From Eledone cirrhosa (taxonomy: Eukaryota), in the NCBI GenBank assembly GCA_964016885.1, contig OZ024741.1, positions 355,508,001 through 355,572,000 of the forward strand: DNA of 64,000 nucleotides. Direction: 5' to 3'. Shown in pieces: positions 3,824-59,648 of the stretch. The translations under genes and the position numbers were made by a program. The notes beneath the pieces are model-generated. The model was not told the DNA's origin and did no database searches. It saw only the letters and a list, made by a program, of their open reading frames with translations. Numbering within the stretch: the stretch's first letter is position 1; each line of letters begins with the position of its first letter.

Positions 3824-4093
3824 AGTGGGTATGGTGCGGTGTGCGGTGGCCGGAAGCTGGGGAGTGCTCAACCGGAAGAGTGCTTGACCGGAAGGGTGCT
3901 TGGCCGGAAGGGTGCTCGACCGGAAGGGCCAGCAGATCGGTCTCTCTCTAGTGGTGACCAGGAACGGTGTGGACGCGAGCTTGGCAGCTCCCGGGTGTTA
4001 ATGAGTTGGACGTATGTGGAAGAGGAGAAACCAGCCTTGGGATTTAGCGGCGCCTATGAAAAGCGGTAAGTGAGAGAGCTTTTTCTAACCACA
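3824..4093 (+). repeat. 5' LTR
   Basis: (A)GTGGG...CCACA; about 11 differences from the 3' LTR by manual count. Confidence 0.93.
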
Positions 4094-4233
4094 TGCTATT
4101 TCGGCACTGGAAATTGAGATCTGATTGAAAAAAAAAAAAAAAAAAAAAAAACTTTCTCGAAAACAAAGCTACTGGAAAAACTGAGAGGAGTCTGTTGTTT
4201 TTTAAAATTACGTACCGCAAGACAAATTAGGAT

Positions 4234-4980: not shown

Positions 4981-4994
4981 TAGCGGTTCTGCCT

Positions 4995-7660: not shown

Positions 7661-7788
7661 AGGAAACTTAAAGTGCTGCCCCAACACCGCGGAGATCGCA
7701 AAGAAGTCGCAAACCACCAACCTGGACAGCAGACTTTCATATGCAGAAGGACGAGGGGGAAATTGATCCTTGAAATCATGGGGGGGCG

Positions 7789-8058
7789 TGTGGGTATGGT
7801 GCAGTGTGCGGTGGCCGGAAGCTGGGGAGTGCTCGACCGGAAGAGTGCTTGACCGGAAGGGTGCTTGGCCGGAAGGGTGCTCGACCGGAAGGGCCAGCAG
7901 GTCGGTCTCTCTCTAGTGATGACCAGGAACGGTGTGGACGCAAGCTTGGCAGCTCCCGGGTGTTAATGAGTTGGACGCACGTGGAAAAGGAGAAACCAGC
8001 CTTGGGATTTAGCGCCGCCTATGAAAAGCGGTAAGTGAGATAGCTTTTTCTAACCACA
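7789..8058 (+). repeat. 3' LTR
   Basis: TGTGG...CCACA termini; direct repeat of 3824-4093. Confidence 0.93.
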
Positions 8059-9109
8059 CAACCAGTACAATTATGAAATCATTGGAGACTTCAAGATAGT
8101 GGCTTTCCTGCTTGGACTCCAAAGAGCCTTTATCAAATTCCAATGCTTCCTCTGTCTTTGGGACAGCAGAGCCACCTCTGACCACTACAAAAGAAAGAAC
8201 TGGGAGCAGCGATCAGAATTTGTAGTTGGGACCCGGAACGTCATGTGGGAGCCACTGGTTGATACCAGGATTGTGTTCATGCCGCCACTGCACATTAAGT
8301 TGGGGTTGATGAAGTTTGTGAAGGCTCTCAACCAAGAATCAGCCACTTTTAAGTACCTTCTTGAGTTCTTCCCCAAGTTATCTGAGGCCAAAATCAAAGG
8401 TGGAATTTTTGTTGGACCTCAGATAAAGAAGGTGTTTGAGTCTACCGAGTTCTCCAATAAGCTCAATAGGATTGAGAGAACAGTATGGAACTGTTTCAAA
8501 GCAGTTGTTAAGGGCTTCCTGGGCAACTACAGAGCTGAAAACTACCAGCAACTGGTGCAGGATCTGATAAAGGCTTTTGGTGCCATGGGATGCAGGATGT
8601 CGCTTAAACTCCATATGCTGGACGCTCACCTGGAAAAATTCAAGGACAATATAGGCACCTACTCAGAAGAACAAGGCGAACGATTCCACCAAGATGTGAA
8701 AGAGATAGAGCGGAGGTACTAGGGCCACTACAATGAAAAAATGATGGGGGATTATATGTGGGGGCTAGTGCGGGAATGCGACCTGGACTACAACTGCAAA
8801 TCCAAGAAATCCAGTCATTTCTGACGTGTATAAGTTGCTTTATAACTGTTATTTGTTTTTACTTGTTTGCTTTTGATAAGCTTGTGTAATAAAATAAATA
8901 TATACTCTGTTGATTTAATTATATGAACTGATAAATTTTTAAATAATGTGTTTTTTCTTGAAAAATATGAAAATTTCGAAATATCAAACTCCTGACCACA
9001 AACCCAAACTTCTGATTAAATAATAGTGTTTTTTTTATAATAATGGGATATAACAAACCATGAAATGACACTTAGAACCGGGGAACAAAAAATATGTTAC
9101 ACGGTGATA

Positions 9110-34415: not shown

Positions 34416-34460
<45 letters not shown>

Positions 34461-34466
<6 letters not shown>

Positions 34467-36530
34467 GCTTATTAGCCCAACCACCTCTGACTTGGGTCGT
34501 ATCAGCAAGAAAATTCTCGATAGGATCATCCCTGGCATGCGAGACGCTATGACCTATAAACTGTGGTCTAACACCGGCCAAGTCATTAGATGGTTCTCAG
34601 ATCTTGGGTCCAAGGACTTGATGAGGTTTCTCCAGTTTGACATTGACGGTTACTACACTTCTATATCCCCGGCACTGCTTAACAAAACATTAACTCTAGC
34701 TTGCACTAATTCAGACATAACTAATAAAGAGATTGACATCATCCTTATGGCTAAGCAGACTATTATCGAATTCAAAGGCTCATTCTGGACAAGAAAGGAG
34801 AGAGCGGATGACTTTGATATCACAATGGGCTCTAGCAATTCTGCGCAAGTCACAGACTTAGTTGGAATCTACCTCTTACACAACATTAGAGCTGAGCTCC
34901 CACCTTTGCAAGGCGGATTATATAGGGACGACGCCCTATTTGCGGTCCACAATTGCAAGGATCGTGGCATTGAATTGCTCAAAAAACAACTACACAGATT
35001 CATTAAAGATAACGGTCTATCTATTACCATCGAACCTAACCATAAGGTAGTGAGTTTCCTTGATGTCACCCTTGATCTTACTAACAACTTATATTACCCT
35101 TATCATAAACCAGGTGAAATACTTACTTATATTAGCCTGCACTCTAACCACCCACCAGCAGTCATCAGAGCGGTATTAAGTCTATCTCATATAGGATCTC
35201 CTTGCTATCCGCCAATGAGGAGATATTTAATGCCCATGCGGCATATTATAGTAAGGCCCTTTCTGAATCTGGTTATACACAGTCTATCTACTACATACCT
35301 AAGGGCCATAACACAGAACTTCACCACAACCCCAATAACTTTAACACTAGAACTAGAAATACATTAGCATTTAGCCAGATTTGCCGGAAGTCTAGGCCTA
35401 CCAATACCTATACAGCTAATCGTAATAGTGGCAGAGGCCTAATCCCTACTCCTAGAAGCAGACTCAGAATCAGCCCTAGATTAAGAAATGATAATAGGCC
35501 GACCATTAGCAAGCACATTGGCAATAATAACACTAGTAATGCCCCTGCCAACTCTGCTAGACCCCATAGACGTAACAGGCCTAGAAAAATCACCTGGCTT
35601 AAGCCCCCGTCTCATCTAACTTAGCTACCAACATCCCTAAACGCTTCTTCTCCATCCTATCTAAACCCCCCCCCCCTAACCATAGATATTACAAGCTCTT
35701 TCATAAAAACAATATTAAAATCTCTTTCTCCACTACACCGAACCTAGCCTAGCCACATCGCATTTAGCAACTATCATAAACTAAAAAAATATAACCCCCC
35801 CCCCCATAAGTACTTCACGTAGCCATACCAATACTCATCGTAATAACAGAACACCCCCCTCCAATCCCACTAGTACACACCAGCTGCATAGTTTAAACAA
35901 CCCTACTCTTACTATTCGCAACTGTAGTTGCAACTGCCGTAACCCTACTGCATGCCCGCTTAACGGCCAGTGCCTTACGCCCAATATCGTATATAGGTGC
36001 AGGGTTAGAACAGCCTCATCCCCTAGCTCTTATATTGGCTCTATATCAAACCCCTTTAAGGTTCGCTATAATGCACACTCATTTTCCTTCCGCGACCCTA
36101 GCAATAGATGCTCAACTTCTCTAACTAGGGTCATTAAAAACATTAGACTAGCCAACATTGAACATTCAATAGCTTGGGATATCTTGGTTAGATCCCCTGC
36201 GTTTAATGGGAGAAAAAACTCTTGCGACCTCTGTCTTACCGAGGCCTATCACATACCTTTTATTTCTGCTTTATATATAGTAATAATCTCATTATCTCTC
36301 CCTAAGTTCCGAAGATCTGCTCCATAATATTCTATGTTGCTTATATTTCTCTGCACCAATTAATAACTTTCTTACCATCGATTGATCCAGAAACATTATA
36401 TGGAGTAGTGAAACAATTGTAAACTGACATTACTATCCCCTTTCTATATTAAACTGCACTTAATATTGATACTCTGTGACTAATGTCTTCTATGTGAATT
36501 TGTGGTCTTGATTTGCTTAACTACTGAATA
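34461..36530 (+). mobile_element. 5'-truncated Naiad-type Penelope-like retroelement (RT, GIY-YIG, pLTR) in (TA)n
   Basis: RT: FLQFDIDGYYTSI, FDITMGS, GLYRDD, FLDVTLDL, SNHPP. Linker: RKITW.KPP, CNC..CPLNGQC. EN: IVY..YIG..FKVRYNAH..CDLCLTE. Frameshifted. Confidence 0.88.
36305..36424 (+). ncRNA. Hammerhead-like motif in the PLE pLTR (core variant CCGAAGA)
   Basis: agtt CCGAAGA tCTGCTCCATA...TATGGAGTAGt GAAA CAATTG TA aact. Confidence 0.55.
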
Positions 36531-39860: not shown

Positions 39861-39959
39861 CTGGTGTAACAACAACAACAACACTAACAATAACAATACC
39901 AAAATTCAATAAATGCATCAACAACAACAACAATAAAAGCAACCAGAATAAAGTAAAGA

Positions 39960-41050
39960 TAATAATTGTTTCTACTTTTTGGCACAAGGCCAGCAATTAC
40001 CCAGTATAATTACTGGTACTTTATTTTATCGACCCCATAAGGATGAAAGGCAAAGTTAACCTCGGCGGGATTTGAACTCAGATCGTAAAGGGACATAACT
40101 ATGCTGGAAAGCATGTCCGACCCTCTACCGATACTGCCAATTCACCAATAATGATTACTATTTTTGGTACAAAGCCAGTAATTTTAGGAAGGAGAGGAAA
40201 GCTAATTAAATCAACTCCAGTACTTTACTGATACTACATTTAATCAACCCTGCAAGGATGAAAAGCAAAGTTGACCTCAATAGGTATTGAAACCAGAATG
40301 TAGAGGGCCATGATGAAATACTGCAATGCATTTAATCTGATGAACTAATGATTTTGGCAACCTGCTGTCTTTAGTAAATATAATAATGATTTCTAGTATA
40401 GGCACAAGGCCAATAATTTGGGGGAGGGGAAAGTCAATTAAATCGACCCCAGTACATGATTGGTACTTTATTTTATTGACCCCAGAAAGCTGAAGCCTTT
40501 CAGCTAATACTTTATTTGTACTTGGCTGGTATTTTATTTTATCAACCCCAGAAAGATGAAAGATAAAATGGACTTTGTGGGGGTTTGAACTCAGAACCTA
40601 AAGAACTAGAACAAATACTATAAAATATTTTGGCTGGTACATTATTTCAACCCCAGTACTTGGCTGATACTTTATTCTATCAACCCCAGAAGGACGACAG
40701 GCAAAGTTGACCTCAGTGAGATCTGAAATGAAAACATGAATTGGAACAAATACCACAAAACATTTTGTCTGATACTCTAACAATTCTTCCAATCCATCGC
40801 CATTATCAGTAGTAATAATTGTTTCTACTTTTGGCTCAGGCCAGCAATTTAATTTGGATAGTGGGAGAAAAAGTAAATTATATCAACCCCAGTATCTGAC
40901 TGGTACTTTATTTTATCGAGCTCAGAAAGATGAAAGGCGGGGTTGGCCTTGATGGGATTAGAAATCAGAAAGTAGAGAGTTGAAACAAATACTGCTAAAC
41001 ATTTTGTCCAATGCTCTAATGATTGTTAATCTATCACCCTTCTTATCAAT
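39960..41050 (-). mobile_element. Head-to-tail cluster of about five tRNA-derived SINEs separated by short AAT runs
   Basis: Tails (aataat..ttcta...caaggcc) at ~39961, 40147, 40380 and 40813; cores at ~40030, 40250, 40540, 40680 and 40915. Confidence 0.8.
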
Positions 41051-41967: not shown

Positions 41968-42096
41968 CAAAGCCACACAGTTCTCCTGTGTAGTCTGTAT
42001 TACAGTAGCAGATGAATTTGGTTCCATTACCAACCTGGTCGCAGCGGGCTGCATTCTTGCAGGGGGCACTACGACATGGGTTTCTTGTAGATATAG
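41968..42096 (-). CDS. Multi-EGF protein exon (EGF1)
   Basis: tttcag|CT ATA...TTT G|gtaatt; 129 bp, phase 1-1; ISTRNPCRSAPCKNAARCDQVGNGTKFICYCNTDYTGELCGF. Confidence 0.9.
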
Positions 42097-42127
42097 CTGA
42101 AATAGCAACAATACAACATTCATATAT

Positions 42128-45100
42128 AATGATAATAATAATAATGCTTTCTTTATTAACCACAAGGGTTTACATAAAGTAGACATTAAGGACAGTACAG
42201 GACAATACAGGACGGTACAAATGGGCATTTCTGCGTGTAAAAAAACAAAAAAAAACGGAAGATGTAATAATAGAACAATGAAAATATTCCCCAATAGGGG
42301 GGAGACTTCCGAGGGACATTCGTGGAGAAAGCCCAATAAAAAGCCACAGTGACCCTGACCACCAGGGCAAGTGTCCTCTCCCAGTTTTCCACCTTTAATT
42401 TACAGACACATACTCAGAGTAGGCCCATTCACTCGGGCCATTCTTGCCTCTCACACCCATCTTTCAACAAAATGCTGGGAAGAGAGCACTTCCCTCTCTA
42501 CCCTGATTTTCCTTTTCAAATGAAATTTGAAACGGTTAATCAGGGCATCACCGAAGAGGTAAGTGGTCGTCTTCAGCCCTTTCAAACGTGTCCACCATAC
42601 TATCTCTTTCGCCATGGCCACCAGACATTTAAAAACTGCCTGCCCTTCCCGGCTAAAGGAAGAGGGCGGGGCAATCCTCACGATGGACTCAGCTGATAGC
42701 TGGATCCGTCCTACACGTGACAGCAGGTGTTCGACATAAACCCACAAGTCAGCAATGCTCGGACACTGAACGAGTGCATGCAGGACGGTTTCGTCGCCCT
42801 GCGCGCATCTCGGACATGCCCGGCTGACGGCACCTCCATGCCTGTAGAGTTTATCCTGAACTTGCAAAGCTCCTCGGTAGCACTGCCAGGCCAGGGATTT
42901 CTGGTAATTGTCCATAGGCCCCGGCCCGAAAGTCCTTCCGAAGAGATTGGCTAGTTGATTTTCGTCGACGCCTAGAGTTTCTCCAAGTACGTCGTCACTC
43001 TTCCCCTCCACTAATCCTCTATAGAACGCCAAGGTGGAGTTTCCACCGATCACATTGCCCGATTGGTCGAGGGCTGTGAGCGCCTGAAGACATTCCAGTC
43101 TCCAAGCGCTCCCTCTTGGTCTTCGCTTGACCAGGACTGCAGCTCCGTCAAGGAGACGAGCTGGGGAAAGACGTGTCTAGCAAACGGCGACCACACCTGA
43201 TCACCGTCGAGGAAGAGGTGGAGATGTCGTAGCCTGAGCGTGTGTCTGCGCATCATCAGCCACAACATGCCCAGCCCTCCACGTAGTGGGTGTTGACAGC
43301 AGATGGACCGCCTGACCATTGGAGTGCGTCCCTTCCACACAAAGCGAAATAGCAAACGCTCCAGCACAGTCAGGCGGGGCGTAGGACAAAGTACGACGGT
43401 CAGGCGGTAGTAGATGACGGACGCGATGTACGCGTTAGCCACCTTTGCTTGACCTTTCAGGGATAGCTTCCTCTCCGCCCATTTCTGGGTGAGAGAAGCC
43501 ACCCTGCTCGTCACCTCGTCCCAGTTTTTGTCCGTCTGGAGGTCCGGACCGAACCAGACCCCTAGCAATTTAACCGGTCCGTCCGTCCAACGCCTGACGA
43601 CGCTGTTGGACGGCATGGACCTGCCTCTCCAGGTGCCGAGCTGCAGGCCCACTGACTTTTCCTGGTTGATCATTGCTCCTGTCACCGCTTCGTATTCTCT
43701 TAGTGTAGTGCCGATCGACTCGATGTGTTTGGCGTTCAACACCACTACGGTGACATCGTCCGCATATGCTGACACGGATCTTCCGCATCCTAGTTCGCGC
43801 GAGACCCACTCAACGTCTCCAGTTTGTGCAGTAATGGCTCGAGAGTTAATACGTACAAGAGGGACGAGAGGGGACATCCTTGGCGGACCGAGCGCATGAT
43901 GTTGAACGGTTCCAAAAGGTGACCGTTCACTCTCACCACAGAGCAGATGTCGCTGTGCATGGCAGCGATCTAGCCTCTGAAGACGGGCCCAAAGCCAGCC
44001 ACCCTCAGGGACTGCCGCTAGGTAACGATGGTAGACCCTATCGAAAGCTTTCGACTGATCTAAATTGATCAAGGACCCACCCGTGCCAGGTTCCCTAGCT
44101 ACCCTCTCTACGCTGCATCGCATGAGGTGGAGGTTGTCGTGGATGGCTCTGTCGGGAATGGTGCACGTCTGTGCCTCTCCCACCAGACCACCAACGACAA
44201 GCGCCAACCTCTTTGCTAGCACCTTGGCCAAAATCTTGAACTCTGTGTTTAGCAGAGTTATGGGCCTGAAATTATCTATGTTATCCCCCTTGTTCGGATC
44301 CTTTCTCAGCAGCGTCACAGCTCCTCGGCTCACAGAGCTGGGAGTCCTCCCGTTCTGTTGCCAGTTGCAGTAGACGTCCACCAAGAGGCCACCGAACAAG
44401 TCTGGCATCTGTATGTAAAGTTCATAGGGCAGACCATCCAAACCAGGCGATTTACCCCTTGTGCAGCCAGTCATTGCCTCCCGTACTTCAGCGGCTGTTA
44501 TCGGCTTTTCGCAACACTCCACCTCAGTGGCCGAGAGCCGCGGCATTCCGTTGAGGTAAACACTAAAGTCCATCCCTCGATCCGGCCCACCGCTGCTCTA
44601 TTTTTCTCTATTGCTAAAGCCTTACTAAACCTAATGGACTCTATCCTAATTGCTCATTTCAGAGCAAACCACCACTTGTTGTTGACGATGGCCCCCGTCA
44701 ACGACCGCTTAACTAGTTCGCTAATCTGGTCTCTGTAGGCCTTGCGCGTTGGTAAGGACGCGTTTAGCTTCCAGTAGCCAGGTCCTCGTCTATGAAGCCT
44801 ATCTAAGTGAAGCACACAGATCACGAATTTGTGGTCCGTGTAGCTGACTATCTTGAATTGTGGACAGCCTATGCTAGACCTATCTATTTCCCTACAAAAT
44901 ACTCTATCTAGATATGATCGGGATGAGCCTATGAAATTTGTCCAAGTCCACATTGGCACATTCGGGAACCTCAATCGGTACCTGTCAGACAGTTCAAAAC
45001 GCCTGAGCAGGTTGGTGAGGCTCTTGCACCCTCCTCCTCTATCCGCTGATCCCACACAGTCCCAATTTGCATGTAAGATCCCGTTCCAGTCGCCCACTAA

Positions 45101-47771
45101 CAATTAAGAGCGGGACGTTCCAAGAAAGTTCTCCAGACGCCGGAAGAAATCAGGCCGCCCTGCTCCTGTCGGGGCATAGACGGCCACTAGCCTGAAAGCT
45201 TGCCCGTCTCCGCTGGTCACGTCCAGCACCACCAACTTCCCTCTGGGTCCAGGAAGATGGCCCGTATGGCGAGATCCAAACCTCTTCGAAAAAGCACAGC
45301 AACTCCTCCCCCCGATCCAGGGCGACTGGGAGATGCGTACACATCGTAGCCGCCGAAGATCGGTGCGAAGGCCCGTGCTTCGGAGATTCTGGTCTCGCTG
45401 ATGGCCACTACATCTATGTTTAGTAACCTGAGGTCATTGAGCAGGTGGCCCTGTTTCCATGACGACCCCAAGCCACGCGCATTTATGCTGCCTATTCTGA
45501 GTGAGGTCATGTTGAAATGGAGTGGAAAAGATGGGAAAGACCACTTATCTTACTTCTCGTAGAGGAAGGATGGTTTGTCCATCCTTTTCACTGCTTGTGG
45601 CCTCCTCCGGAAGGATGTCCTTATAAATCCTCCTGGAGAGTGCTTGTCGGAAGTCTCCGATGTCTTTGGGGAATTTTTGTTTTAGTGTCGTGTACGTTTT
45701 CTGTGTGATGCGAGTGATTTGTATGTGTGGAGGCGGTGTGAACTTTTGGGTTGTTGTGTAGTCTTTTTCTGTGATGCTGGTTTTGTGTTGGATGTAGTGT
45801 AATAATTGGTTGTTGTTCAAATTTAATTGTTTCTACTTTTGGCACAAGGCCAGCAATTAGCCAGTACATTACTGGTACTTTATTTTATCAACCCCGTTGT
45901 TCAAATTTAATGCTGTGTAGTGTGTATCGTTTTGGTTGTTTTGTTTTGTTGTGGGTTTGTTTCTGTTTCGCTTTTTGGTGACATTTGTGGTGTTGGGGTT
46001 AATGATGGTGATGGTGTTAGTGTTTGTGGTGATGGGGTTGGTGATGCTGGTGTGGATGGTGGCATATCTGTCCTAACTTTTTTGTTTCATAGTTTATTTG
46101 TTTCCCTCTGTATTTTGTTTTTGGAGGGGGAAGGAAGATAATTTTTTCTTTTTTGGTTTCTTTTTGTCTTTTTTCCTGATACCGTTTTCCACTCCTCGTC
46201 GTTACAATCTGTCTCCAGTTGTGATAGGTCGGGGAGTGGAAAATCCTCCACAGGCGTTGGATTTGGTTGTGGCGTGGTGGATGGTGTAGGCGCTGGTGCT
46301 AGTTCTGGCGCGTTGGGTGGTGGTGGTGTTGGTTTTGCTACTGTTGCGGGGGTTGTTGCTGTTACAGTTGCTTCTGTTGTTGCTGCTACAGTTGTTGCTG
46401 CTACAGTTTTTGCTGCCATCTCTGCTGCTGGTGGTGTTGATGGTTGAATCACTGGGGTGCGTAAGAGAGGTGGCCTCAACCTTTTAGCCTGAGGGCAGAA
46501 AGCCCTTAGGTGGGTTCCTTCACCACAAACGACACACCTAGGCCTTCTGCCCTCGACGATTTAGGTGAGGTGGCTGCCGTCAGTGAGATCTATTACCTCT
46601 GGGATCTCTTCAATGCTTTTTTGGTCCGCTTGGATCAGGAGCTCCATCCCAGATCCGGACCAGTTCTCCTGCTTTTCTTTCGCTGTTTCGATTATCTTGG
46701 TGTTGGCTTCGATGCCGGCGAGGACGGCAGCCATTAGCCAGGGAATTTCGATGGCCGGTGGAAAGTGGGTCACCCTGATCTTTACGAGTCTCTGGCCACA
46801 ATAGCTTGGGACGAGTGTGAAGTCGTCACTTCTTAATGGGACCATGGAGTGTACTCTAGCCTCCTGTGGTGTTTCAAAGAACACGTCCACGGTTCCATAT
46901 TTCTGCCCACGTCTGATGTGGGTTTTTTTTGCCCACACATGTCCCAAACATTTTTGCATTTGGGACTCGGATGCCCGTTCCACTCGGCGCGATTTTATGT
47001 TAATTGTTCGATAAGACACGGTGCATAGGCGCCGATGCTCCATTTTATTAGGTGGGGCGATGGGTTGGGGTGGGGTGAGGCTGACCCTGTACCCATCTTT
47101 CTTTACCATTTGTTTGGCTTCTTCTAATTCCTCCTGAGTTACCTGGAATGCTTCGCACTTTTTTGCTACTCTCGCAAAAGACAGGGTGGTTTTCTTAATT
47201 TCATTGTTGCTGTTGTTGTTATCGTTATTTTTGTTATTGTTAATTTTAGTTTCAGTTGTGGTGGTGGTGGCGTCAGTGGTGTTCGGTATGGAAGAGTTCA
47301 TTTTGGTTGAATTCATTTCGATATCACGAGTGAATTTATTTTTTTCTTTTGTTTCTGTTGTCGCTGTGGTGGTGGTGGCGGCTTTAACACCTGCAGTCAT
47401 TGGTAATGGCGGGAAATGAATGTCTGCCTGAGACAAATTAAAAATATTCCTATTGCTTATATTTTTAGTGTTGGCAAACGTAGTAATATTTACAATGGTG
47501 GTGTCGGTGTGAGGTGTTAGTTTGTGAGGAAGGTGTGACGCTGAGTCGGCCATGATTTTTCAAAGAAATTTTTTTGTTTGTTTGATAATTATAAAAAGTT
47601 TAAATTTTGGGCTCAAGGCCCCAATCTTTTTGAGTGTCCTTTTCAGAAATCAATATATGTGCACTTATATACAGTTAACAATAAAAATTTTCCATAAATG
47701 GCAATTTTAAACAACTGAAAATAACAAACCTTTGCGGAGCTCACATGATACGATTTACTACGTAAGTTGCC
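42128..47771 (-). mobile_element. Tx1/L1-clade LINE copy A, full-length ends, with a 303-bp internal deletion and a SINE insertion
   Basis: ORF1 from 47553 (CVVCGEGTHLRAFC knuckle). ORF2 from 45510: APE (SINARGL, ISET, GDWN, YLDR, TDH), RT (SPGLDG, FRPITLLN, DQSKAFDRV, YADD), zf-RVT CPRC..H..C. AATAAA and (ATT)n tail. Confidence 0.93.
45828..45895 (-). mobile_element. 5'-truncated SINE inserted in Tx1 copy A
   Basis: 16-bp TSD GTTGTTCAAATTTAAT (45812-45827, 45896-45911); empty site in copy B at ~51786. Confidence 0.9.
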
Positions 47772-47826
<55 letters not shown>

Positions 47827-50800
47827 TTTTCTTTATTAACCACAAGGGTTTACATAAAGTAGACATTAAGGACAGTACAGGACAATACAGGACGGTACAA
47901 ATGGGCATTTCTGCGTGTAAAAAAACAAAAAAAAACGGAAGATGTAATAATAGAACAATGAAAATATTCCCCAATAGGGGGGAGACTTCCGAGGGACATT
48001 CGTGGAGAAAGCCCAATAAAAAGCCACAGTGACCCTGACCACCAGGGCAAGTGTCCTCTCCCAGTTTTCCACCTTTAATTTACAGACACATACTCAGAGT
48101 AGGCCCATTCACTCGGGCCATTCTTGCCTCTCTCACCCATCTTTCAACAAAATGCCGGGAAGAGAGCACTTCCCTCTCTACCCTGATTTTCCTTTTCAAA
48201 TGAAATTTGAAACGGTTAATCAGGGCATCACCGAAGAGGTAAGTGGTCGTCTTCAGCCCTTTCAAACGTGTCCACCATACTATCTCTTTCGCCATGGCCA
48301 CCAGACATTTAAAAACTGCCTGCCCTTCCCGGCTAAAGGAAGAGGGCGGGGCAATCCTCACGATGGACTCAGCTGATAGCTGGATCCGTCCTACACGCGA
48401 CAGCAGGTGTTCGACATAAACCCACAAGTCAGCAATGCTCGGACACTGGACGAGAGTGCGTGCAGGATGGTTTCGTCGCCCTGCGCGCATCTCGGACATG
48501 CCTGACTGACGGCACCTCCATGCCTGTAGAGTTTATCCTGAACTTGCAAAGCTCCTCGGTAGCACTGCCAGGCCAGGGATTTCTGGAAGTTGTCCATAGG
48601 CCCCGGCCCGAAAGTCCTTCCGAAGAGATTGGCTAGTTGATTTTCGTCGACGCCCAGAGTTTACCTAAGTACGTCGTCGCTCTTCCCCTCCACTAATCCT
48701 CTATAGAATGCCAAGGTGGAGTTTCCACCGATCACATTGCTCGATTGGTCGAGGGCTGTGAGCGCCTGAAGACATTCCAGTCTCCAAGCGCTCCCTCTCG
48801 GTCTTCGCTTGACTCAGCACTGCAGCTCCGTCAAGGAGACGAGCTGGGGAAAGACGTGTCTAGCAGACGGTGACCACACCTGATCACCGTCGAGGAAGAG
48901 GTGGAGATGTCGAAGCCTGAGCGCGTGTCTGCGCATCATCAGCCACAACATGCCCAGCCCTCCACGTAGCGGGTTTTGACAGCAGATGGACCGCCTGACC
49001 ATCGGAGCGCGTCCCTTCCACAAAAAGCCAAAGAGCAAACGCTCCAGCGCAGTCAGGCAGGGCTTAGGACAAGGTACGACGGTCAGGCGGTAGTAGATGA
49101 CGGGCGCGATGTACGCGTTAGCCACCTCCGCTCGACTTTTCAGGGATAGCTTACTCTCCGCCTATTTCTGGATGAGAGAAGCCACCCTGCTCGTTACCTC
49201 GTCCCAGTTTTTGTCCGTCTGGAGGTCCGGACCGAACCAGACCCCTAGCAATTTAACCGGTCCGTCCAGCGCCCGACGACGCTGTTGGACGGCATGGACC
49301 TGCCTCTTCAGGTGCCGAGCTGCAGGCCCACTGACTTTTCCTGGTTGATCATTGCTCCTGTCACCGCTTCGTATTCTCTTAGTGTAGTGCCGATCGACTC
49401 GATGTGTTTGGCGTTCGACACCACTACAGTGACAACGTCCGCATATGCTGACACGGATCTTCCGCATCCTAGTTCGCGCGGACCCCCCTCAACGTCTTCA
49501 GTTTGTGCAGTAATGGCTCGAGAGTCAATACGTACAAGAGGGACGAAAGGGGACATCCTTGGCGGACCGAGCGCATGATGTTGAACGGTTCAGAAAGGTG
49601 ACCGTTCACTCTCACCACAGAGCAGGTGTCGCTGTGCTTGGCAGCGATCGATCCAGCCTCTGAAGACGGGCCCAAAGCCAGCCGCCCTCAGTAAGGTAAC
49701 GATGGTAGACCCTATCGAAAGCTTTCGACTGATCTAAATTGATCAAGGACCCACCCGTGCCAGGTTCCCTAGCTACACTCTTTACGATGTATCGCATGAG
49801 GTGGAGGTTGTCGTGGATGGATCTGTCGGGAATGGCGCATGTCTGCGCCTCTCCCACCAGTCGACCAACGACAAGCGCCAACTTCTTTGCTAGCACCTTG
49901 GCCAAAATCTTGAACTCTGTGTTTAGCAGAGTTATCGGCCTGAAATTATCTATGTTATCCCCCTTGTTCAGATCATTTCTCAGCAGCGTCACAGCTCCTC
50001 GGCTCACAGAGCTGAGAATTCTCCCGTTCTGTTGCCAGTTGCAGTAGACGTCCGCCAAGAGGCCTCCGAACAAGTCTGGCATCTGTACGTAAAGTTCATA
50101 GGGCAGACCATCCAAACCAGGCGATTTACCCCTTGTGCAGCCAGTCATTGCCTCCCGTACTTCAGCGGCTGTTATCGGCTTTTCGCAACACTCCGCCTCA
50201 GTGGACGAGAGCCGCGGCAGTCCGTCGAGGTAGACACTAAAGTCCATCCCTCGATCCGGCCCGCCGCTGCCCCCGAATAGCTGTGCGAATTGTCGCTGAA
50301 AAGCTTCACACATTTGCCCGGGATCGAGTAGCATGCGCTAATCGTGGTCCACCAAAACCGGATCGTGGCTTTGTTGCCACGACGCGCCTCCGCCACTCGG
50401 GCCCATTGAACGGCTTTCCCCTCGTGTCTGAGAGCACGCACCCTAGCTCTGACAACGCAGCCTTCGTGCTTTGCATTGAAGAATTGGTCAAGGGCCAATT
50501 TCGCCGCAAGTACGTCGGTCGCGATGCTTTTGCTAAGCGCCTCGTCTAATTTTCTAACTAGTTCTCCCTCTGCTCTATTTTTCTCTATTGCTAAAGCCGT
50601 ACTAAACCTATTGGACTCTATTCTAATCGCTCTTTTCAGAGCAAACCACCACTTGTTGTTGACGATGGCCCCCGTCAACGCCCGCTTAACTAATTCGCTA
50701 ATACGGTCTCTGTAGGCCTTGCGCGCTGGTAAGGACGCGTTTAGCTTCCAGTAGCCGGGTCCTCGTCTATGAAGCCTATCTAAGTGAAGCACACAGATCA

Positions 50801-53698
50801 CGAATTTGTGGTCCGTGTAGCTGACTATCTTGAATTGTGGACAGCCTATGCTAGACCTATCTATTTCCCTACAAAATACTCTCTCTAGATATGATCGGGA
50901 TGAGCCTATGAAATTTGTCCAAGTCCACATTGGCACATTCGGGAACCTCAATCGGTACCTGTCAGACAGTTCAAAACGCCTGAGCAGGTTGGTGAGGCTC
51001 TTGCATCCTCCTTCTCTATCCGCTGATCCCACACAGTCCCAGCTTGCATGTAAGATCCCGTTCCAGTCGCCCACTAACACTAAAGAGCGGGACGTTCCAA
51101 GAAAGTTCTCCAGACTCCGGAAGAAATCAGGCCGCCCTGCTCCTGTCGAGGCATAGCCGGCCACTAGCCTGAAAGCTTGCCCGTCTCCGCTGGTCACGTC
51201 CAGCACCACCAACTTCCCTCTGAGTCCAGGAAGATGGCCCGTATGGCGAGATCCAAACCTCTTCGAAAAAGCACAGCAACTCCTCCCCCCGATCCAGGGC
51301 GACTGGGAGATGCGTACACATCGTAGCCGCCGAAGATCGGTGCGAAGGCCCGTGCTTCGGAGATTCTGGTCTCGCTGATGGCCACTACATCTATGTTTAG
51401 TAACCTGAGGTCATTGAGCAGGTGGCCCTGTTTCCATGACGACCCCAAGCCACGCGCATTTATGCTGCCTATTCTGAGTGAGGTCATGTTGAAATGGAGT
51501 GGAAAAGATGGGAAAGACCACTTATCTTACTTCTCGTAGAGGAAGGATGGTTTGTCCATCCTTTTCACTGCTTGTGGCCTCCTCCGGAAGGATGTCCTTA
51601 TAACTCCTCCTGGAGAATGCTTGTCGGAAGTCTCCGATGTCTTTGGGGAATTTTTGTTTTAGTGTCGTGTACGTTTTCTGAGTGATGCGAGTGATTTGTA
51701 TGTGTGGAGGTGGTGTGAACTTTTGGGTTGTTGTGTAGTCTTTTTCTGTGATGCTGGTTTTGTGTTGGATGTAGTGTAATAATTGGTTGTTCAAATTTAT
51801 TGCTGTGTAGTGTGTATCGTTTTGGTTGTTTTGTTTTGTTTGCGTTTGTTGTGGGTTTTTTGCTGTTTCGCTTTTTGGTGACTTTTATGGTGTTGGTAAT
51901 GGTGGTGTTGGGGTTAATGATGGTGATGGTGTTGCTGTTTGTGGTGATGGGGTTGGTGATGCTGGTGTTGGTGGTGGCATAGCTGTCCTAACTTTTTTGT
52001 TTCATAGTTTATTTGTTTCCCTCTGTATTTTGTTTCTGGAGGGGGGAAGGAAGACGATTTTTTTCTTTTTTGGTTTCTTTTTCTTTTTTTCTTTTTTCCT
52101 GATACCGTTTCCCACTCCTCGTCGTCACAATCTGTTTCCAGTTGCGATAGGTCGGGGAGTGGAAAATCCTCCACAGGCGTTGGTTTTGGTTGTGGCGTGG
52201 TGGATGGTGTAGGCGCTGGTGCTAGTTCTGGCGCGTTGGGTGGTGGTGGTGTTGGTTTTGCTACTGTTGCTGGGGTTGTTGCTGTTACAGTTGCTTCTGT
52301 TGTTGCTGCTACAGTTGTTGCTGCTACAGTTGTTGCTGCCATTTATGCTGCTGGTGGTGTTGATGGTTGAGTCACTGGGGTGGGTAAGAGAGGTGGCCTC
52401 AACCTTTTAGCCTGAGGGCAGAAAGCCCTTAGGTGGGTTCCTTCACCACAAACGACACACCTAGGCCTTCTGCCCTCGACGATTACGGTGAGGTGGTTGT
52501 CGTCAGTGAGGTCTATTACCTCTGGGATCTCCTCAATGCTTTTTTGGTCCGCTTGGATCAGGAGCTCCATCCCAGATCCGGACCAGTTCTCCTGCTTTTC
52601 TTTTGCTATTTCGATTATCTTGGTGTTGGCTTCGATACCGGCGAGGACGGCAGCCATTAGCCAGGGAATTTCGATGGCCGGTGGAACGTGGGTCACCCTC
52701 ATCTTCACGAGTCTCTGGCCACAATAGCTTGGGACGAGTGTGAAGTGGTCACTTCTCAATGGGGTCATGGAGCGTTCTCTGTCCTCCTGTGGTGTTCCAA
52801 AGAACACGTCCACGGTTCCATATTTTTGCCCACGTCTGATGTGGGTCTCTTTTGCCCACACATGTCCCAAAGCTTTTTGGATTTGGGACTCGGATGCCCG
52901 TTCCACTCGGCGCGATTTTATGTTAATCGTCCGATAAGACACGGTGCATAGGCGCCGATGCTCCATTTTATTAGGTGGGGTGGGGGTGCGGGGTGAGGCT
53001 GACCCTGTACCCATCTTTCTTTACCATTCTTTTGGCTTCTTCTAATTCCTCCTGAGTTACCTGGATTGCTTCGCACTCTTTTTGCTACTCTGGCAAAAGA
53101 CAGGGTGGTTTTCTTATTTTCATTGTTGTTGCTGTTGTTGTTATCGTTATTTTCGTTATTGTTAATTTTAGTTTCAGTTGTGGTGGTGGTGGCGTCAGTG
53201 GTGTTTGGTGTGGAAGAGTTCATTTTGGGTAAATCCATTTCGATGTCACGAGATAATTTATTTATTTCTTTTGTTTCTGTTGTCGCTGTGGTGGTGGTGG
53301 TGGATGCGGCTTCAACACCTGCAGTCATTGGTAATGGCGGGAAATGAATATCTGCATGAGACACATTTAAAATATTGCTACTGCTTATATTTTTAGTGTT
53401 GGCAAACGTAGTAATATTTACAATGGTGGTGTCGGTGTGAGGTGTTAGTTTGTGAGGAAGGTGTGACGCTGAGTCGTCCATGATTTTTTTCAAAGAAAAA
53501 TGTTTTGTTTGATAATTATAAAAGTTTAAATTTTGGGCTCAAGGCCCCAATCTTTTTGAGTGTCCTTTTCAGAAAACAATGTATGTGCACTTATATACAG
53601 TTAACAATAAAAATTTTCCATAAATGGCAATTTTAAACAACTGAAAATAACAAAACTTTGCGGAGCTCACGATAATACGATTTACTACGTAGGTCGCC
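47772..53698 (-). mobile_element. Tx1/L1-clade LINE copy B, full length
   Basis: Collinear with copy A, same 5' terminus GGCrACyTACGTAGTAAATCG; ORF1 from ~53481, ORF2 from 51487; several frameshifts; (ATT)n tail at 47772-47825. Confidence 0.93.
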
Positions 53699-53738
<40 letters not shown>

Positions 53739-53741
53739 TTA

Positions 53742-56700
53742 ATGGAAATGGAGAGTGGAGTAGGCCAGGCAAACGAGCCAGTGGGAGATGAAGGTGAAGA
53801 GGTTGAGAGAACGGAGGAAGCATCCGAAGCAGACAATGATCTGAATGCTGAAATAAATAATACCTGGAACAAAGATACGGCCATTGAGGAAATGAATGCT
53901 GACGGGCTAGGACAAGATTTGGTTGATATCTTAAACTTAGTGGTAGATGAAATGAACAATGATAGTGGGAAACCTATGAACCTAAGATTTTTAGACAGGA
54001 AAAAGTTAAAAGAAACAACAGCTAAGGTAAACAAAGTCATCACATACCTTGAGCGAGGAACCTTCACCAGTGCAACAATATCCTCAAAGCAACAGCAAAT
54101 GAGGAAATTACTTGGCATAAAAGCGAGAGGAAACAACAAACAAGAAAGATCAGAACCTTGGTGGAAGAAACGACTGAATGGTCAAATCAGGGAAATGAGA
54201 AATGACAGTGGAAAGCTTGAGTCCCTACTGAATGGGACACTACAAAACAGACACTAAAAATAGACAGGAAATAAAGTACAAAACTAGGAGGAAAAAGCTA
54301 AATATTATCATAGAGGAACTGAAGCAACGCATTGTAACAAAGAGTGCAAAGATTAGGCGATATGAGAGCAGAGTCAGTCAGTATAGATAGAACTGCATGT
54401 TGTTTGGACAACTTGAAGGGAAAGAAAGAGGCAACGACTTGATCCCTGAGGCGGAACAAACTAAGACATTCTGGAGAGGAATATGGGAGCAGGATGTTAA
54501 ACATAATGATCAGGCAGTGTGGATTGAGACAGTACAAAAGGAGATTAGTGAACAGGCACACCAACAAACTGATTTGAGTATCACAGTTGAAACTCTTAAG
54601 AGGCAGGCCAGAAAACTAACCAACTGGAAATCACCAGGCCCAGATGGTGTGCAGGGGTATTGGATTAAAAATATAACATCCCTCCACCCGAAACTGACAA
54701 CCATGTTCAATGACTGCTTGATGTCAGGTGAGGTACCAGAGTGGTTGACAAAAGGTACCGCAGTTCTGGTAATGAAAGACCGAACCAAGGGTAATGATGT
54801 TACCACCTATAGACCTATCACATGTCTGTCCATAATGTGGAAACTGTTAACAAGCATTGTGTCTGAGGAAATCTACCATCACCTCATAAACAACTTGTTA
54901 CCTGACGAACAGAAATGATGCCGAAAGAAGTCCCGTGGTACAAAGGACTAGTTACTTATTGATAAGATGGTAATGAGGAATTGCAGGAGGAGACACACTG
55001 GTCTTGTCATGGGATGGATAGACTACAAAAAAGCATTCGACATGGTACCTCATTCTTGGATAACCAAAAGCCTAGAGATCTTCAGGGTGGCAGATAACAT
55101 CAGACAGTTGTTGAGCAAAAGTATGAAGTCCTGGAAAACAGAGTTAACATCGGGCGGCGAATCCTTGGGAGGCGTGAAGATCAAGAGAGGTATCTTCCAG
55201 GGAGATAGTTTGTCCCCTCTGTTGTTTGTCCTTGCTCTGATCCCCTGACCATTATACTGCGAAAAGTGAGAGCAGGATACAAGTTGGGAAAAGGAGAGCT
55301 TACCATCAATCACCTCCTCTTCATGGACAATCTTAAGCTCTTCGGGAAGAGTGAGAAGGAGTTGGATGTGCTTGTTGACACTGTCCGTATTTTCAGCAAT
55401 GATATATGTATGCAATTTGGTATTAGTAAGTGTGGAGTCCTTGTGATGAAGTGGGGTAAATTGAGCAGAAGCAACGGAATCCAGCTACCAACAGGTGAGA
55501 TGATAAAGGAAATTGATACTGAAGATGTATACAAATATTTAGGTGTTCTGGAGGCTGATGACATCAAGAACAAAAAAATGAAGGAATTGACAAGATCTGA
55601 ATACATTCGGAGAGTAAGGAGCGTATTAAAGTCACATCTGAACAGTAGGAATGCCTTAAGTGCAGTAAATTTCCGAGCTGTGTCTATTATTAGGTACAGT
55701 GCGGGAATTCTGAGATGGAATGTTGCTGAACAAAAAGAAATGGATAGGAAGACTAGGAAGCTATTGACTATCTACAACATGTTCCACAAGAGGAGTGATG
55801 TCGATAGACTCTACTTAAGGAGATCTGAAGGTGGAAGAGGTCTTATCAGCATAGAGGACTGTGTTCAGATGGAGAAAAACAACCTACACAAATACGTGAC
55901 TGATAGTAGGGAGCCAATGCTCAGAATTGTACTGAAGGAGAGGACAATAGACCAGGGAATGTCCAAGGAGGAAATAACAACAAGGAGAAAGAGCAACCAT
56001 CATGAAAAATCCCTTCATAGTACCTTCTTTGAGAAAACTGAATTTAGAGATCCACAGAGATGGAACTGGTTGAAAAGAGGAGACCTTAAAAAGGCTACAG
56101 AAGGAATGCTAATGGCTGCGCAAGAGCAGGCCCTCAAAACGAAGGGGCTGAAACACCATATTTACAAGGAGGAGGCTAGTCCACTGTGTAGGATCTGTGG
56201 AGAGAGAGAAGAGACTGTGGCTCACATTGTATCTGAGTGTAAACACCTAGCCCAGACTCACTATAAAGGCTGGAGACATGATGTGATGAGCAGGGTGATC
56301 CACTGGTACCTATGCAAAGTAAACAATTTACCACATTCTGAGAAGTGGTATGAGCATAAGCCAGAGTCGGTGATGGAAAACGATCAGGTGAAGGTGCTGT
56401 GGGATTTTAGGATACAGACGGACAAGAAACTGGAACACAATAGACCTGACCTGGTAGTTTTGGACAAGGGAAAAAGATTGTGCCTGATTGTGGATGTAGC
56501 CTGCCCATTCAACACGAGAATGCAAGAGAAGGAGAGGGAGAAAATTAACCGATACCAGGACTTAAAGTGGGAGGTAAAAAGGATTTGGAACTGCCATGAG
56601 GTCAAAGTGGTCCCACTTATCATAGGCACACTAGGTACTATCTCAAAGAGTTTCCAAGGAGGTTAAAGAAAATTGGTCCTGCCCCGCTTTTTGGAACACT

Positions 56701-56836
56701 TCAAAAGCATGCTTGCTGGGAACAGCAAGAACCCTCCGATACATCCTGAATATCTGAGGCTGCAGGTAGTGGCTTGATATTCATTTCAACAAACTTTCCA
56801 GTTAAATAACATCAATGACTGAGACTCAAAGAACAA
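53742..56836 (+). mobile_element. R4/Dong-clade non-LTR retrotransposon (RT, CCHC, restriction-like endonuclease), decayed and probably 5'-truncated
   Basis: NWKSPGPDG, YRPITCL, IDYKKAFD, GIFQGDSLSP, FMDN, YKYLG, CRICG..H..C, RHD, RPDLVV..DVACP..KINRY; (AAT)n on both sides. Confidence 0.92.
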
Positions 56837-56857
56837 TAATAATAATATTAATAATAA

Positions 56858-57049
56858 TAATTGTTTCTACTATTGGCACAAGGCCAGAAATTATCCAGTA
56901 CATTACTTGTACTTTATTTTATCGACCCCGTAAGGATGAAAGGCAAAGTTAACCTCGGCGGGATTTGAACTCAGAATGGCAAGGGCCGTAACTCTATGTT
57001 GGAAAGCATGGCGTCCGACCCTCTACCAATACTGCCAATCCACCGCCCT
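56858..57049 (-). mobile_element. tRNA-derived SINE, full length, in (AAT)n
   Basis: ggcggtggattggcag..ggt A-box, gagttcaaatcc B-box, core, tagaaacaattatt tail. Confidence 0.85.
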
Positions 57050-57080
57050 TAATAATATTAATAATATTAATAATAATAAT

Positions 57081-57826
57081 AAAGCTACAGAAGGAATGCT
57101 AATGGCTGCGCAAGAGCAAGCCCTCAGAACGAAGTGGGTGAAACACCATATTGACAAGGAGGAGGCTAGCTCACTGTGTAGGATCTGTGGAGAGATTGAG
57201 GAGACTGTGGCTCACATTGTATCCGAGTGTAAACACCTAGCCCAGACACACTATAAAGGCTGGAGACATGATGTGATAGGCAGGGTGATCCACTGGCATC
57301 TATGCAAAGTAAACAATTTACCACATTCTGAGAAGTGGTATGAGCATAAGCCAGAGTTGGTGATAGAAAACGATCAGGTGAAGGTACTATGGGATTTTAA
57401 GATACAGACGGACAAGAAACTGGAACACAATAGACCTGACCTGGTAGTTTTGGACAAGGAAAAAAGATTGTGCCTGATTGTAGATGTAGCCTGCCCATTT
57501 GACACGAGGGTGCAAGAAAAGGAGAGGGAGAAAATTAACCGATACCAGGATTTAAAGTGGGGGTTAAAAAGGATTTGGAACTGCCATGAAATCAAGGTCG
57601 TCCCGATTGTCATAGGCACACTAGGTACTATCTCAAAGAGTTTCCAAGGATGGTTAAAGAAGATTAGTCCAGCCCCGCTTTTTGGAACACTTCAAAAGGC
57701 ATGCTTGCTGGGAACAGCAAGAACCCTCCAATACGTCCTGAATATCTGAGGCTGCAGGTAATGGCTTGATATTCATTTCAACAAACTTTCCAGTTAAATA
57801 ACATCAATGACTGAGACTCAAAAAAC
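57081..57826 (+). mobile_element. Second, strongly 5'-truncated R4/Dong copy
   Basis: Homologous to 56091-56836 with an open C-terminus ending YVLNI*; (AAT)n on both sides. Confidence 0.92.
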
Positions 57827-57837
57827 AATAATAATAA

Positions 57838-58053
57838 TGGTTTCTTATATAGGCACAAGGCCAGTAATTTGGGGGGAGGGGAAAGTCGATTAAATCGACC
57901 CCAGTGCATGACTGGTACTTTATTTTATCGACCCCACAGGATAAAAGGCAAAGCTAACCTCGACGGGATTTGAACTCTGATGGTAAATGGCCGTAACTCT
58001 ATGCTACAAAGCATGGCGTCCGACCCTCTAGTGATACTGCCAATCCACCGCCC
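57838..58053 (-). mobile_element. tRNA-derived SINE, longer subfamily, in (AAT)n
   Basis: Same head, core and tail plus an extra ggggtcgatttaatcgac hairpin segment. Confidence 0.85.
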
Positions 58054-58054
58054 T

Positions 58055-58481
58055 AATAATGATAATAATAATAATGCTTTCTTTATTATTGGCTAGAAAG
58101 GCTGAACATAGAAGACAATACAAAGATGAGGACAGTGGGGTTTTACATAAGATGGTGTAAAAGATAACAAAAACAATTAACAAAAAAATATAAACAACAC
58201 AATTCCCCAATAGGTTAAGAACCACCCAGGTGCGAGTCATGATCCCCACCAATCCTAAACCACCCGACGTTGCGAGAGAACATGGGGAAGGCACTTTTCT
58301 CCTGTTCAACTCAACCAGACTAGAGGTGCATGCTCTGAGAAGGCTCATTCACATGGGCCATTCTCGCAGCATTCACCCACCTTTTAGCAAATGTACTGGG
58401 GCGCAGCACGTCCCTCTCACCTCTCCCCCTCACCTTCCTTTCCAAGTGAAACTTGAAAAAATTGATGAGGGATTGGCCGAA
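58055..58481 (-). mobile_element. 5'-truncated Tx1-clade LINE of a sister family
   Basis: Same aataaagaaagc(ATT)n end; LINFFKFHLERK is homologous to LINRFKFHLKRK in copies A and B. Confidence 0.75.
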
Positions 58482-59045
58482 CTCATGGTTTTTGAAACTT
58501 TGGATGTTCTAAAAATTTCTCCAGTGATATCAAACTTCCTGAAATATAACATGTTTGTATGGAACACAAACCTATCATTGTCACACAGTGGTGGAACTAT
58601 ATATTCCAGCAGCATAAGTATTAACCATGGTATTTTTTAAGGTGATTCATTTTCTCCACTGATATTTTGCATTGCACACACACGGCTGTCCAACACTCAA
58701 CAAAACAAAATATGGTTACAAAATAGACAGCAAAGCCAGAAATCACCTATTTTATATGGATGACTTAAAACTGTATGCTAAAAATGACAGTGAATTGGAA
58801 GGACTGTTGAAAACAGTTAAGGTGTTTAGCAACGATGTAGTGATGGAATTTGAATTGGAAAAATCCACCAAAGCAACATTCAAGAAAGTCAGAATGACAA
58901 GCACAAACTCAATAGAAATAGATGTGAATACAATATTTAAGGAACTAGAACAGCAACAAGCCTACAGATATTTAGGGATCAATGAAGATCAAGGTATTCA
59001 TCACACCATTATGAAAGAGAGAATTGGGAAGGAATACTACCATAG
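58482..59045 (+). mobile_element. Old R4-like RT fragment
   Basis: GIF*GDSFSPLIFCI, NHLFYMDDLKLYAKN, YRYLGI. Confidence 0.75.
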
Positions 59046-59469
59046 TACGTACTGTCTTGAAATTTCTTTTATTTGCCACAAGGGCAATAGATGAGGGAGA
59101 CATAACAAAGATAAGTTACATCATGAATGTTGGGGTATACATCATGCATAAAGTATTTATATGGTTCCATAACTTCATCAAAAAGAAAATCAAATGTTCA
59201 TAAGTACCCTAGTCAGCCATTCATTTCTGCATTGGGAAAACAATTCACTGCAGGTATTTTTTGAAAAGAAAATTCTTTAAATTTGATCTGAAAGCTGACA
59301 CAGAGGAAGTTCATTAATTACATTTTTTTAACATTTTTTTATATTTGCAAACCTGAAAACATGACATGCAGTGGGATCAAACCAGGAACCATTGATCAGT
59401 TCAAACACACATACAAAGAAAAAAAAATAAAAAATTACACTACCAAAGAAGAAACAAACAATTTCTTAC

Positions 59470-59648
59470 ATTCAGATGAGGAATCAGATTGTCTTCGGAT
59501 TCTTACTACAGAATATTCTCCATGTTCTGGTATTTCTTGAGATGAACCTGCCAAGACAATAGTAAATATGAAAGCCATTGCCACATCATGGCTAGTTGGC
59601 CATTTGTTAGTAGACAAGCTTCCCTTATCCTTGTGTTGACAAAGAGAG
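59470..59648 (-). CDS. Probable N-terminal exon of the multi-EGF gene (hydrophobic stretch, propeptide, RIRR furin site)
   Basis: Acceptor tttag at 59649-59650 with branch-like TGACTAAC ~50 nt upstream. The frame is open throughout (..VAMAFIFTIVLAGSSQEIPEHGEYSVVRIRRQSDSSSE). The phase-1 donor GAA T|gtaag matches the phase-1 start of the exon at 42096. In-frame ATG at 59578. Confidence 0.6.

Follow-up and report, generated by a model that had tools for sequence, protein, structure and literature searches.

Results

The nest and its host intron

The window analysed here, 64,000 nucleotides of the Eledone cirrhosa genome (contig OZ024741.1; C2:355508001-355572000 of the 3.0-Gb assembly), contains a nest of retroelements separated by (AAT)n microsatellite tracts. 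The nest consists of Tx1-like long interspersed nuclear elements (LINEs) of the apurinic/apyrimidinic endonuclease (APE) type, Dong-like LINEs with a restriction-like endonuclease motif, and SINEs (short interspersed nuclear elements). Conceptual splicing placed it within a single phase-1 intron (42097-59469; 17,373 bp), most of which it fills. The host, on the minus strand, is a multi-EGF gene whose product is predicted to be secreted. An exon neighbouring the EGF-type exon at 41968-42096 gave a Pfam EGF match, and the hydrophobic N-terminus and RIRR motif of the first coding exon are likely to represent a signal peptide and a furin site. About 30 nt separate the splice acceptor from the first AAT tract. 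The order, strands and coordinates of the elements, and their location in one intron, agreed with an earlier sequence-only reading of the window (Table 1).

The whole window holds 11 perfect runs of at least (AAT)3 and three of at least (ATT)3; eight of the AAT runs lie within 42128-58075. By comparison, (AAT)3 is found in 0.3% of random 41-bp windows, and the arrangement of the nest is far beyond chance. The tracts at 53699-53737 and 57051-57080 each lie between two element 5' ends and therefore cannot be tails. A rare ATT interruption (12 of 258 tracts) recurs on either side of Dong1 and likewise of SINE1, the pattern that target duplication would leave. The suggestion that each insertion regenerates its target was thus upheld, as interrupted tracts were copied to both sides of the elements. 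It had also been claimed that AAT repeats abut the 5' ends of the elements; this is true of most of them, including the truncated Dong2, but the last Tx1-like copy ends at 58481 without AAT. Past the older R4-like fragment, another Tx1-like 3' end was seen near 59060-59110.

The possibility was considered that Dong2 and SINE2 are a tandem copy of Dong1 and SINE1. This was ruled out, as the two SINEs are not of one subfamily and the units diverge by 7-9%. Elsewhere in the genome, the tracts at loci L017, L038 and L079 change within a run from (AAT)n to (TAT)n, with short inverted repeats beside the element end.

Table 1. Features of the nest and the adjoining exons (window coordinates).
Feature	Position	Strand	Remarks
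EGF-type exon of host gene	41968..42096	-	Conceptual splice in frame with upstream exon
AAT tract with GAT interruption	42128..42145		33 bp identical to 58056-58088
Tx1A	42146..47771	-	Near full-length APE-type LINE with two open reading frames (ORFs); frames broken; 307-bp internal deletion
Truncated 68-bp SINE within Tx1A	45828..45895	-	16-bp target duplication ending in AAT
(AAT)18	47772..47825		Tx1A 5' end on one side, Tx1B 3' end on the other
Tx1B	47826..53698	-	Near full-length, same family as Tx1A; differs from it by about 5%, 3' end excluded
(AAT)13 (53699-53737), then ATTAA	53699..53742		Flanked by Tx1B and Dong1 5' ends
Dong1	53743..56834	+	R4/Dong-like LINE; reverse transcriptase (RT), CCHC finger, C-terminal restriction-like endonuclease motif
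AAT tract with ATT interruption	56835..56861		Dong1 and SINE1 tail to tail
SINE1	56862..57050	-	Subfamily lacking 29 internal bp present in SINE2
AAT tract with two ATT interruptions	57051..57080		Flanked by SINE1 and Dong2 5' ends
Dong2	57081..57826	+	746-bp copy, 5'-truncated; about 7% from Dong1
(AAT)4	57827..57838		Between Dong2 and SINE2
SINE2	57839..58052	-	RNA polymerase III A/B-box-like motifs read by eye
AAT tract with GAT interruption	58053..58075		
Older Tx1-like family	58076..58481	-	3' fragment; 73-84% to best relatives; 5' end (58481) without AAT
Older R4-like RT fragment	58629..59037	+	37% protein identity to Dong1
First coding exon of host gene	59470..59581	-	Hydrophobic N-terminus, RIRR motif

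Tx1-like LINEs

The window Tx1 copy matched the RVT_1 and zf-RVT domains of Pfam. The pieces of its broken APE part had no Pfam match; GDWN and TDH motifs were recognized there, and an exodeoxyribonuclease in PDB was matched weakly (E=0.19). The closest full-length homologues have the layout PF03372+PF00078+PF13966. Two ORFs, an APE, an RT and a zinc finger are the features of the Tx1 clade and would place the family there. No named Tx1 reference was among the matches of the homologue search, in which the named matches were generic fish and frog RT proteins.

From 1,935 candidates obtained with the 5' end of the family, 40 were scored and 30 fetched. Full-length 5' ends adjoined at least four AAT units at 28 of 29 other loci, joined at the same base and in the same phase, while the length of the run varied from 4 to 32 units. 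A search with the 3' end gave 28 other loci; in 14 of these the element is 5'-truncated inside the locus and in the other 14 it extends past it. The latter, together with 11 Dong loci of the same kind, were left out of the 5' counts. The truncated ends adjoined (AAT)3 in 9 of 14 cases and AATAAT or AATAACAAT in two more (11/14). Examined by eye, three truncated copies (L100, L108 and L094) have target duplications of 11-15 bp ending in AAT. Both the full-length and the (AAT)3-adjoining truncated fractions qualify the family as microsatellite-specific by the definition given in the accessible text of PMC4494074 (over 20% of flanking sequences of one repeat type).

The tails of the older Tx1-like family adjoined (AAT)3 in only 12 of 28 copies. 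At L245 (C21:15000001-15010000), a Tx1-like 3' end carrying the 3' motif described below adjoins (ATAG)n/(AG)n and not AAT, possibly representing a sister family with a different target.

Dong-like LINEs

The Dong ORF contains a CRIC..H....C motif. The best matches in PDB, with E=3e-4 and 7e-4, were to two R2 proteins and aligned across an RPDL..D..EK motif, and the close full-length homologues P0001 and P0002 have no APE domain. The RT, the CCHC finger, a putative endonuclease of the PD-(D/E)xK type and the (TAA)n target in sense orientation are R4/Dong features, which point to membership of that group. Dong2 is 5'-truncated, as had been described; Dong1 proved to be truncated as well, by about 1.3 kb relative to the copy at L064, and both window copies lack the 5' end.

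The 5' junctions carried (AAT)3 in 22 of 28 long and 10 of 18 short copies (32/46), with many different truncation points, and (ATT)3 in none of the 46. Tabulation of the 5' flanks thus confirmed the proposed AAT preference of both LINE families (28/29 for Tx1, 32/46 for Dong) over the random frequency of (AAT)3.

That the SINE belongs as a constant component to the 3' end of Dong was ruled out, as the 29 other Dong tails run into varied sequence. At L045 (C5:77146951-77150147), an independent Dong, 88% identical, follows a SINE 5' end and AAT and is truncated at the same base as Dong2 (57081); the common truncation point is possibly a truncation hotspot. A second family of R4-like elements, seen by its 3' end at L089, L082, L078, L109, L117, L199 and L218, has an AAT tail and the orientation of Dong.

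The SINE and its probable link to Tx1

Sixty evenly spaced 10-kb stretches (600 kb) served as a random sample, in which a motif search identified 58 SINE 3' ends. At least one AAT unit adjoined 52 of these, at least two 34, at least three 8 and at least four only 1. Most of 29 best-match copies lie in unique DNA and have their own target duplications. Duplications of 6-18 bp were detected automatically in 14 of the 29, and 13 of them end in AAT; the base that follows was G in eight, A in five and T in one. Likewise, the SINE piece within Tx1A was inserted at a non-microsatellite site with a single AAT. The abutment counts and duplications indicate that the SINE takes short AAT motifs, of which the tracts are merely one kind of site. 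The proposal that it forms a third microsatellite class was therefore not sustained.

The SINE and Tx1 families have the motif CCUUGUG-N-AGAAA-NN-AUU in common at the 3' end, with similar spacing. The motif was not found in the Dong 3' end aligned beside them. Because of this common motif we infer that a Tx1-lineage protein mobilizes the SINE, perhaps one from a less selective sister family. A Rfam search of the window SINEs gave nothing above the gathering score and no tRNA match up to E=1. The motifs of SINE2 resemble what we take to be the A and B box consensus. SINE copies at L046, L203 and L175 are folded back at an internal palindrome to give inverted halves, and four to five SINE pieces cluster in the next intron (window 39947-40970), where there is no run of at least (AAT)3.

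Polarity

The ends at the tracts were counted with a trimmed and masked element library. In the fetched loci, which are enriched for these elements, 274 of 282 element ends at 226 tracts had the predicted orientation, and in the 600 kb of evenly spaced DNA all 14 ends at 23 tracts did so, the families touching 11 of the 23. Eight ends were opposite: three at tracts that switch strand, two internal inversions, one SINE with its own ATT tail and a spacer, and two real exceptions. The strict polarity claimed for the nest therefore extends to most of the tract-abutting ends counted, but it is not absolute; both real exceptions are old Tx1-like tails. In target-primed reverse transcription, a requirement for base pairing between the RNA tail and the nicked strand is enough to fix the orientation. 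Polarity is accounted for by the pairing of tail and target, and so is not by itself proof of strand-specific enzymes.

A second copy of the intron

A sequence search found the Tx1B-AAT-Dong1 junction again 194 kb upstream of the window nest. The region is a head-to-tail repeat of about 190 kb (C2:355,298,341-355,490,157 and 355,490,158-355,677,797), with no N gap in the 457 kb that were read. The duplicates have 972 mismatches in 151,874 aligned bases (0.64%) and about 25 indel differences of more than 100 bp. The tandem repeat (L249-L278) carries two copies of the multi-EGF gene, and its junction is sharp and lies inside an RTE copy.

In the upstream nest, Tx1, Dong and SINE are represented by a single copy each; the intron is 10,617 bp long, 6.7 kb shorter than in the window. 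Its single Tx1 is Tx1A-like (75:10) up to window position 44414 and Tx1B-like (121:14) from 50195. The single Dong is Dong1-like (35:5) up to 56680 and Dong2-like (29:2) from 57730, and is followed by SINE2. Judged from these switches, two crossover deletions between direct repeats are the most likely origin of the short copy. The shorter duplicate contradicts the idea that the nest inflates the intron in one direction only. In the 3' 700 columns Tx1A and Tx1B are 1.4% apart, and the upstream copy has 33 private letters. The 3' ends of Tx1B and Tx1A are 100% identical, whereas other genomic copies reach at most 97%, suggesting that Tx1B is likely to have overwritten the 3' 700 bp of Tx1A by gene conversion in the window copy. 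No new insertion is seen in either nest since the duplicates diverged.

The two copies may instead be alleles that were assembled in tandem, the chimeric nest being an allelic deletion variant. The 0.64% divergence and the many insertion differences are compatible with heterozygosity, one site outside the repeat has two letters at about equal depth, and the contigs of one public sample cross the start of the repeat with no joint listed at the boundary. Against this, the copies meet head to tail at a sharp, gap-free junction, the letters of both duplicates occur in that sample, and contig depth in three runs of the sample was 6.8-10.2 outside the repeat and 5.2-31.3 inside, mostly about 1.3-3 times higher inside, with one inside contig lower. 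The depth data lean towards a real duplication, and we regard two alleles as the less probable reading, at perhaps one chance in four. The comparison of the nests stands in either case.

Other differences between the duplicates were noted. RTE-like insertions with (CAT)n ends are present in one duplicate only at C2:355377959, 355649590 and 355656170, two of them in (TA)n-rich DNA, and further duplicate-specific insertions also lie in (TA)n. Only the upstream duplicate has a tandem array of units of about 505 bp, more than 99% identical, at C2:355391900-355400152.

An APE-type LINE with an (ATT)5 tail, presumably CR1/L2-like, was found at two sites, L152:8973-L153:2108 (C2:355353973-355357108) and C2:355432556-355433183, each in one duplicate only and neither in an (AAT)n tract. 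One is a 3.1-kb copy with an open frame of 952 amino acids and the other lies within a SINE. The end of this LINE adjoins AAT runs in L196 and L211.

Other features of the window

A Gypsy-like long terminal repeat (LTR) element fragment with RT, RNase H-like and integrase matches lies at window 3864-7893, with 16-bp tandem arrays at its borders, between DNA-transposon-like pieces at 3493-3951 and 8054-8722. RT-like and GIY-YIG-like frames at 34417-36327, which had no Pfam match, we take to be Penelope-like; the other duplicate is 522 bp longer near the end of this element.

Discussion

Probable tail pairing at a shared repeat

The Tx1-like family, with its (ATT)n tail, and the Dong-like family, with its (AAT)n tail, face in opposite directions in the same tracts. 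This is probably the outcome of priming by tails that pair with the target, in stacks that are likely both to grow and to shrink. The APE of Tx1 would nick the AAT strand after ...AAT, mostly ahead of a purine, and the Dong endonuclease would nick the ATT strand; reverse transcription of each LINE would be primed from the strand complementary to its tail. The SINE would borrow Tx1-lineage proteins, and so face as Tx1 does and land at short AAT motifs everywhere. Target duplication would enlarge the stacks, and recombination between copies facing the same way would reduce them. At this locus, the old Tx1-like copy with its AAT tail would have arrived first, followed by SINE2, if the GAT-marked 33-bp repeat at the ends of the nest is the duplication made by SINE2. 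Tx1, Dong and SINE1 would then have entered the regenerated tract, and recombination would have come last. The window would thus represent the older, longer state, the upstream copy having lost 6.7 kb through two crossovers.

Several observations weigh against this account. The Tx1 and Dong loci come from best-match lists, which are biased to young copies, and the clade names were taken from domain layout and homologues and not from a tree. Three of the 14 truncated Tx1 ends and 14 of the 46 Dong 5' ends have no AAT run, and the real exceptions to polarity (L174 and L175) amount to two of the 28 old Tx1-like tails. The predicted 3' hairpins of SINE and Tx1 are weak (-4.3 to -9.6 kcal/mol) and vary among copies. 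Moreover, the SINE is much less selective than the young Tx1 family, and its exact partner can thus be named only tentatively. The direction of change between the duplicates was inferred; for one lineage, two deletions over so small a divergence (0.64%) are many; and the upstream nest lacks the GAT marker of 42128 at its left end. Finally, when an empty allele was sought in contigs of four public runs aligned to the short copy, no flank-to-flank joint was among the 15 joints listed, the contigs being swamped by other repeat copies and a further 1,542 joints lying beyond those 15.

Tail pairing alone might select the target, if the endonucleases were unselective or if breaks in unstable AAT tracts were used, so that annealing decided both site and orientation. 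The polarity would then be explained without a strand-specific enzyme, and a SINE with a Tx1-type 3' end and a short AUU tail does land at any AAT motif (52 of 58). We nevertheless consider this unlikely. The APE-type LINE with the (ATT)5 tail entered non-(AAT)n sites in both of its two cases, young Tx1 copies adjoin at least four units at nearly all of their 5' ends, well above the need of priming, and in SART and TRAS it is the endonuclease that determines the site, according to the accessible text of PMC7265360.

With regard to the duplicates, the short copy could be ancestral, the window having gained two segments by templated copying from other stacks: [Tx1A 5' half, AAT, Tx1B 3' half] and [Dong1 end, SINE1, Dong2 start]. 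Such stacks are common in the genome, and L045 has the SINE-AAT-Dong truncation junction of Dong2. Its identity across that junction is only 88%, however. In addition, the tracts of the window-only SINE1 carry the rare ATT interruption of the Dong1 5' junction common to both duplicates, and the window-only segments start and stop in mid-element, like crossover products. Templated gain is accordingly quite improbable in our judgement. That the 5' AAT runs are carried in the element transcript, the repeat not being the target, would suit the single base and phase at which full-length Tx1 copies join it but is very hard to maintain, as copies truncated at many positions still adjoin AAT, the run length varies from 4 to 32 units and interrupted tracts flank single elements on both sides.

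Returning to the shared use of the repeat by tail-paired LINEs, a broader view may be put forward tentatively, with slightly less than even confidence. In this view, AAT tracts form a two-strand niche for an APE-type and a restriction-like endonuclease LINE; because polarity is fixed, every insertion into the repeat adds a direct repeat, and the intron stacks limit themselves, growing and then collapsing by recombination at less than 1% divergence. A Tx1 lineage that recognizes 3' ends stringently would drive a SINE that is among the most abundant of the genome. On the main reading, the SINE is likely to be a passenger whose target is looser, and the stack is probably no one-way ratchet.

These results add (ATT)n to the targets of Tx1-like elements. 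With a pair of unrelated endonucleases on one repeat, it becomes possible to ask directly which of the two, enzyme or tail, determines site and strand. A likely driver can be named for a very abundant SINE (58 copies with the motif end in 600 kb). Furthermore, the duplicated intron gives a before-and-after view, in which two deletions and a gene conversion are likely to have taken place over 0.64% divergence. Stack turnover becomes measurable, and the idea that nests only inflate introns is tempered.

Comparison with known systems

In the literature searched, which was mostly open-access main text, no (ATT)n-targeting Tx1 and no pair of APE and restriction-like endonuclease elements on one microsatellite was found. 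The papers cited below are represented by the accessible parts of their text. Deletion between retroelements in direct repeat, as in Alu-Alu and L1-L1 deletions and in the formation of solo LTRs, leaves one chimeric element. Unlike the repeats in Alu-Alu and L1-L1 deletions, the direct repeats here arise from the fixed polarity of target-specific insertion itself.

Dong targets TAA in moth, mosquito and snail (PMC3812793). The Bombyx mori Dong, DongAg and DongBg of the snail Biomphalaria are TAA-microsatellite-specific members of the R4 clade (PMC3812793, PMC3774820). The family described here resembles Dong in having the TAA/AAT repeat at its 5' side in sense orientation and an RT followed by a CCHC and a restriction-like endonuclease motif, and there is a molluscan precedent. 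It differs in that its tracts are shared with an oppositely facing APE-type family and that at least two Dong-like families use them. PMC3812793 places Dong among APE elements, whereas the copy in the window has a restriction-like motif. In octopus annotations, Dong-R4 and L1-Tx1 are abundant and recently active, and no target is named in the accessible text (PMC13282606, PMC8967140).

Among Tx1 families, Kibi targets (TC)n and Koshi (TTC)n (PMC3812793), and crocodilian families are found in (TTCC)n/(TTTC)n (PMC4494074). The closest homologues of the present family have the same layout of APE, RT and zf-RVT, and insertion into a simple repeat in one orientation is likewise common to them. The target differs, since (ATT)n is not named for those families in the accessible text.

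SART and TRAS, of the R1 clade, enter the telomeric (TTAGG)n of Bombyx in opposite directions (PMC7265360, PMC10088271). As here, two LINE families use one repeat in opposite orientations and form arrays. SART and TRAS are both APE elements at telomeres, whereas the present pair combines an APE with a restriction-like endonuclease at a dispersed microsatellite inside genes.

The crocodilian Tx1-Mar likely moves SINEU, to which it is linked by a common target and head (PMC4494074), and SINEs with L1-clade tails, that is, with a common 3' end, are rare, with three cases (PMC3747384). The present SINE is similar in likely using Tx1 proteins. The link differs from that of SINEU in being a common 3'-end motif, and the target of the SINE is looser than that of the LINE. 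Each part of the system therefore has its precedent, in Dong and TAA, in Kibi and Koshi, in SART and TRAS, and in SINEU and Tx1-Mar.

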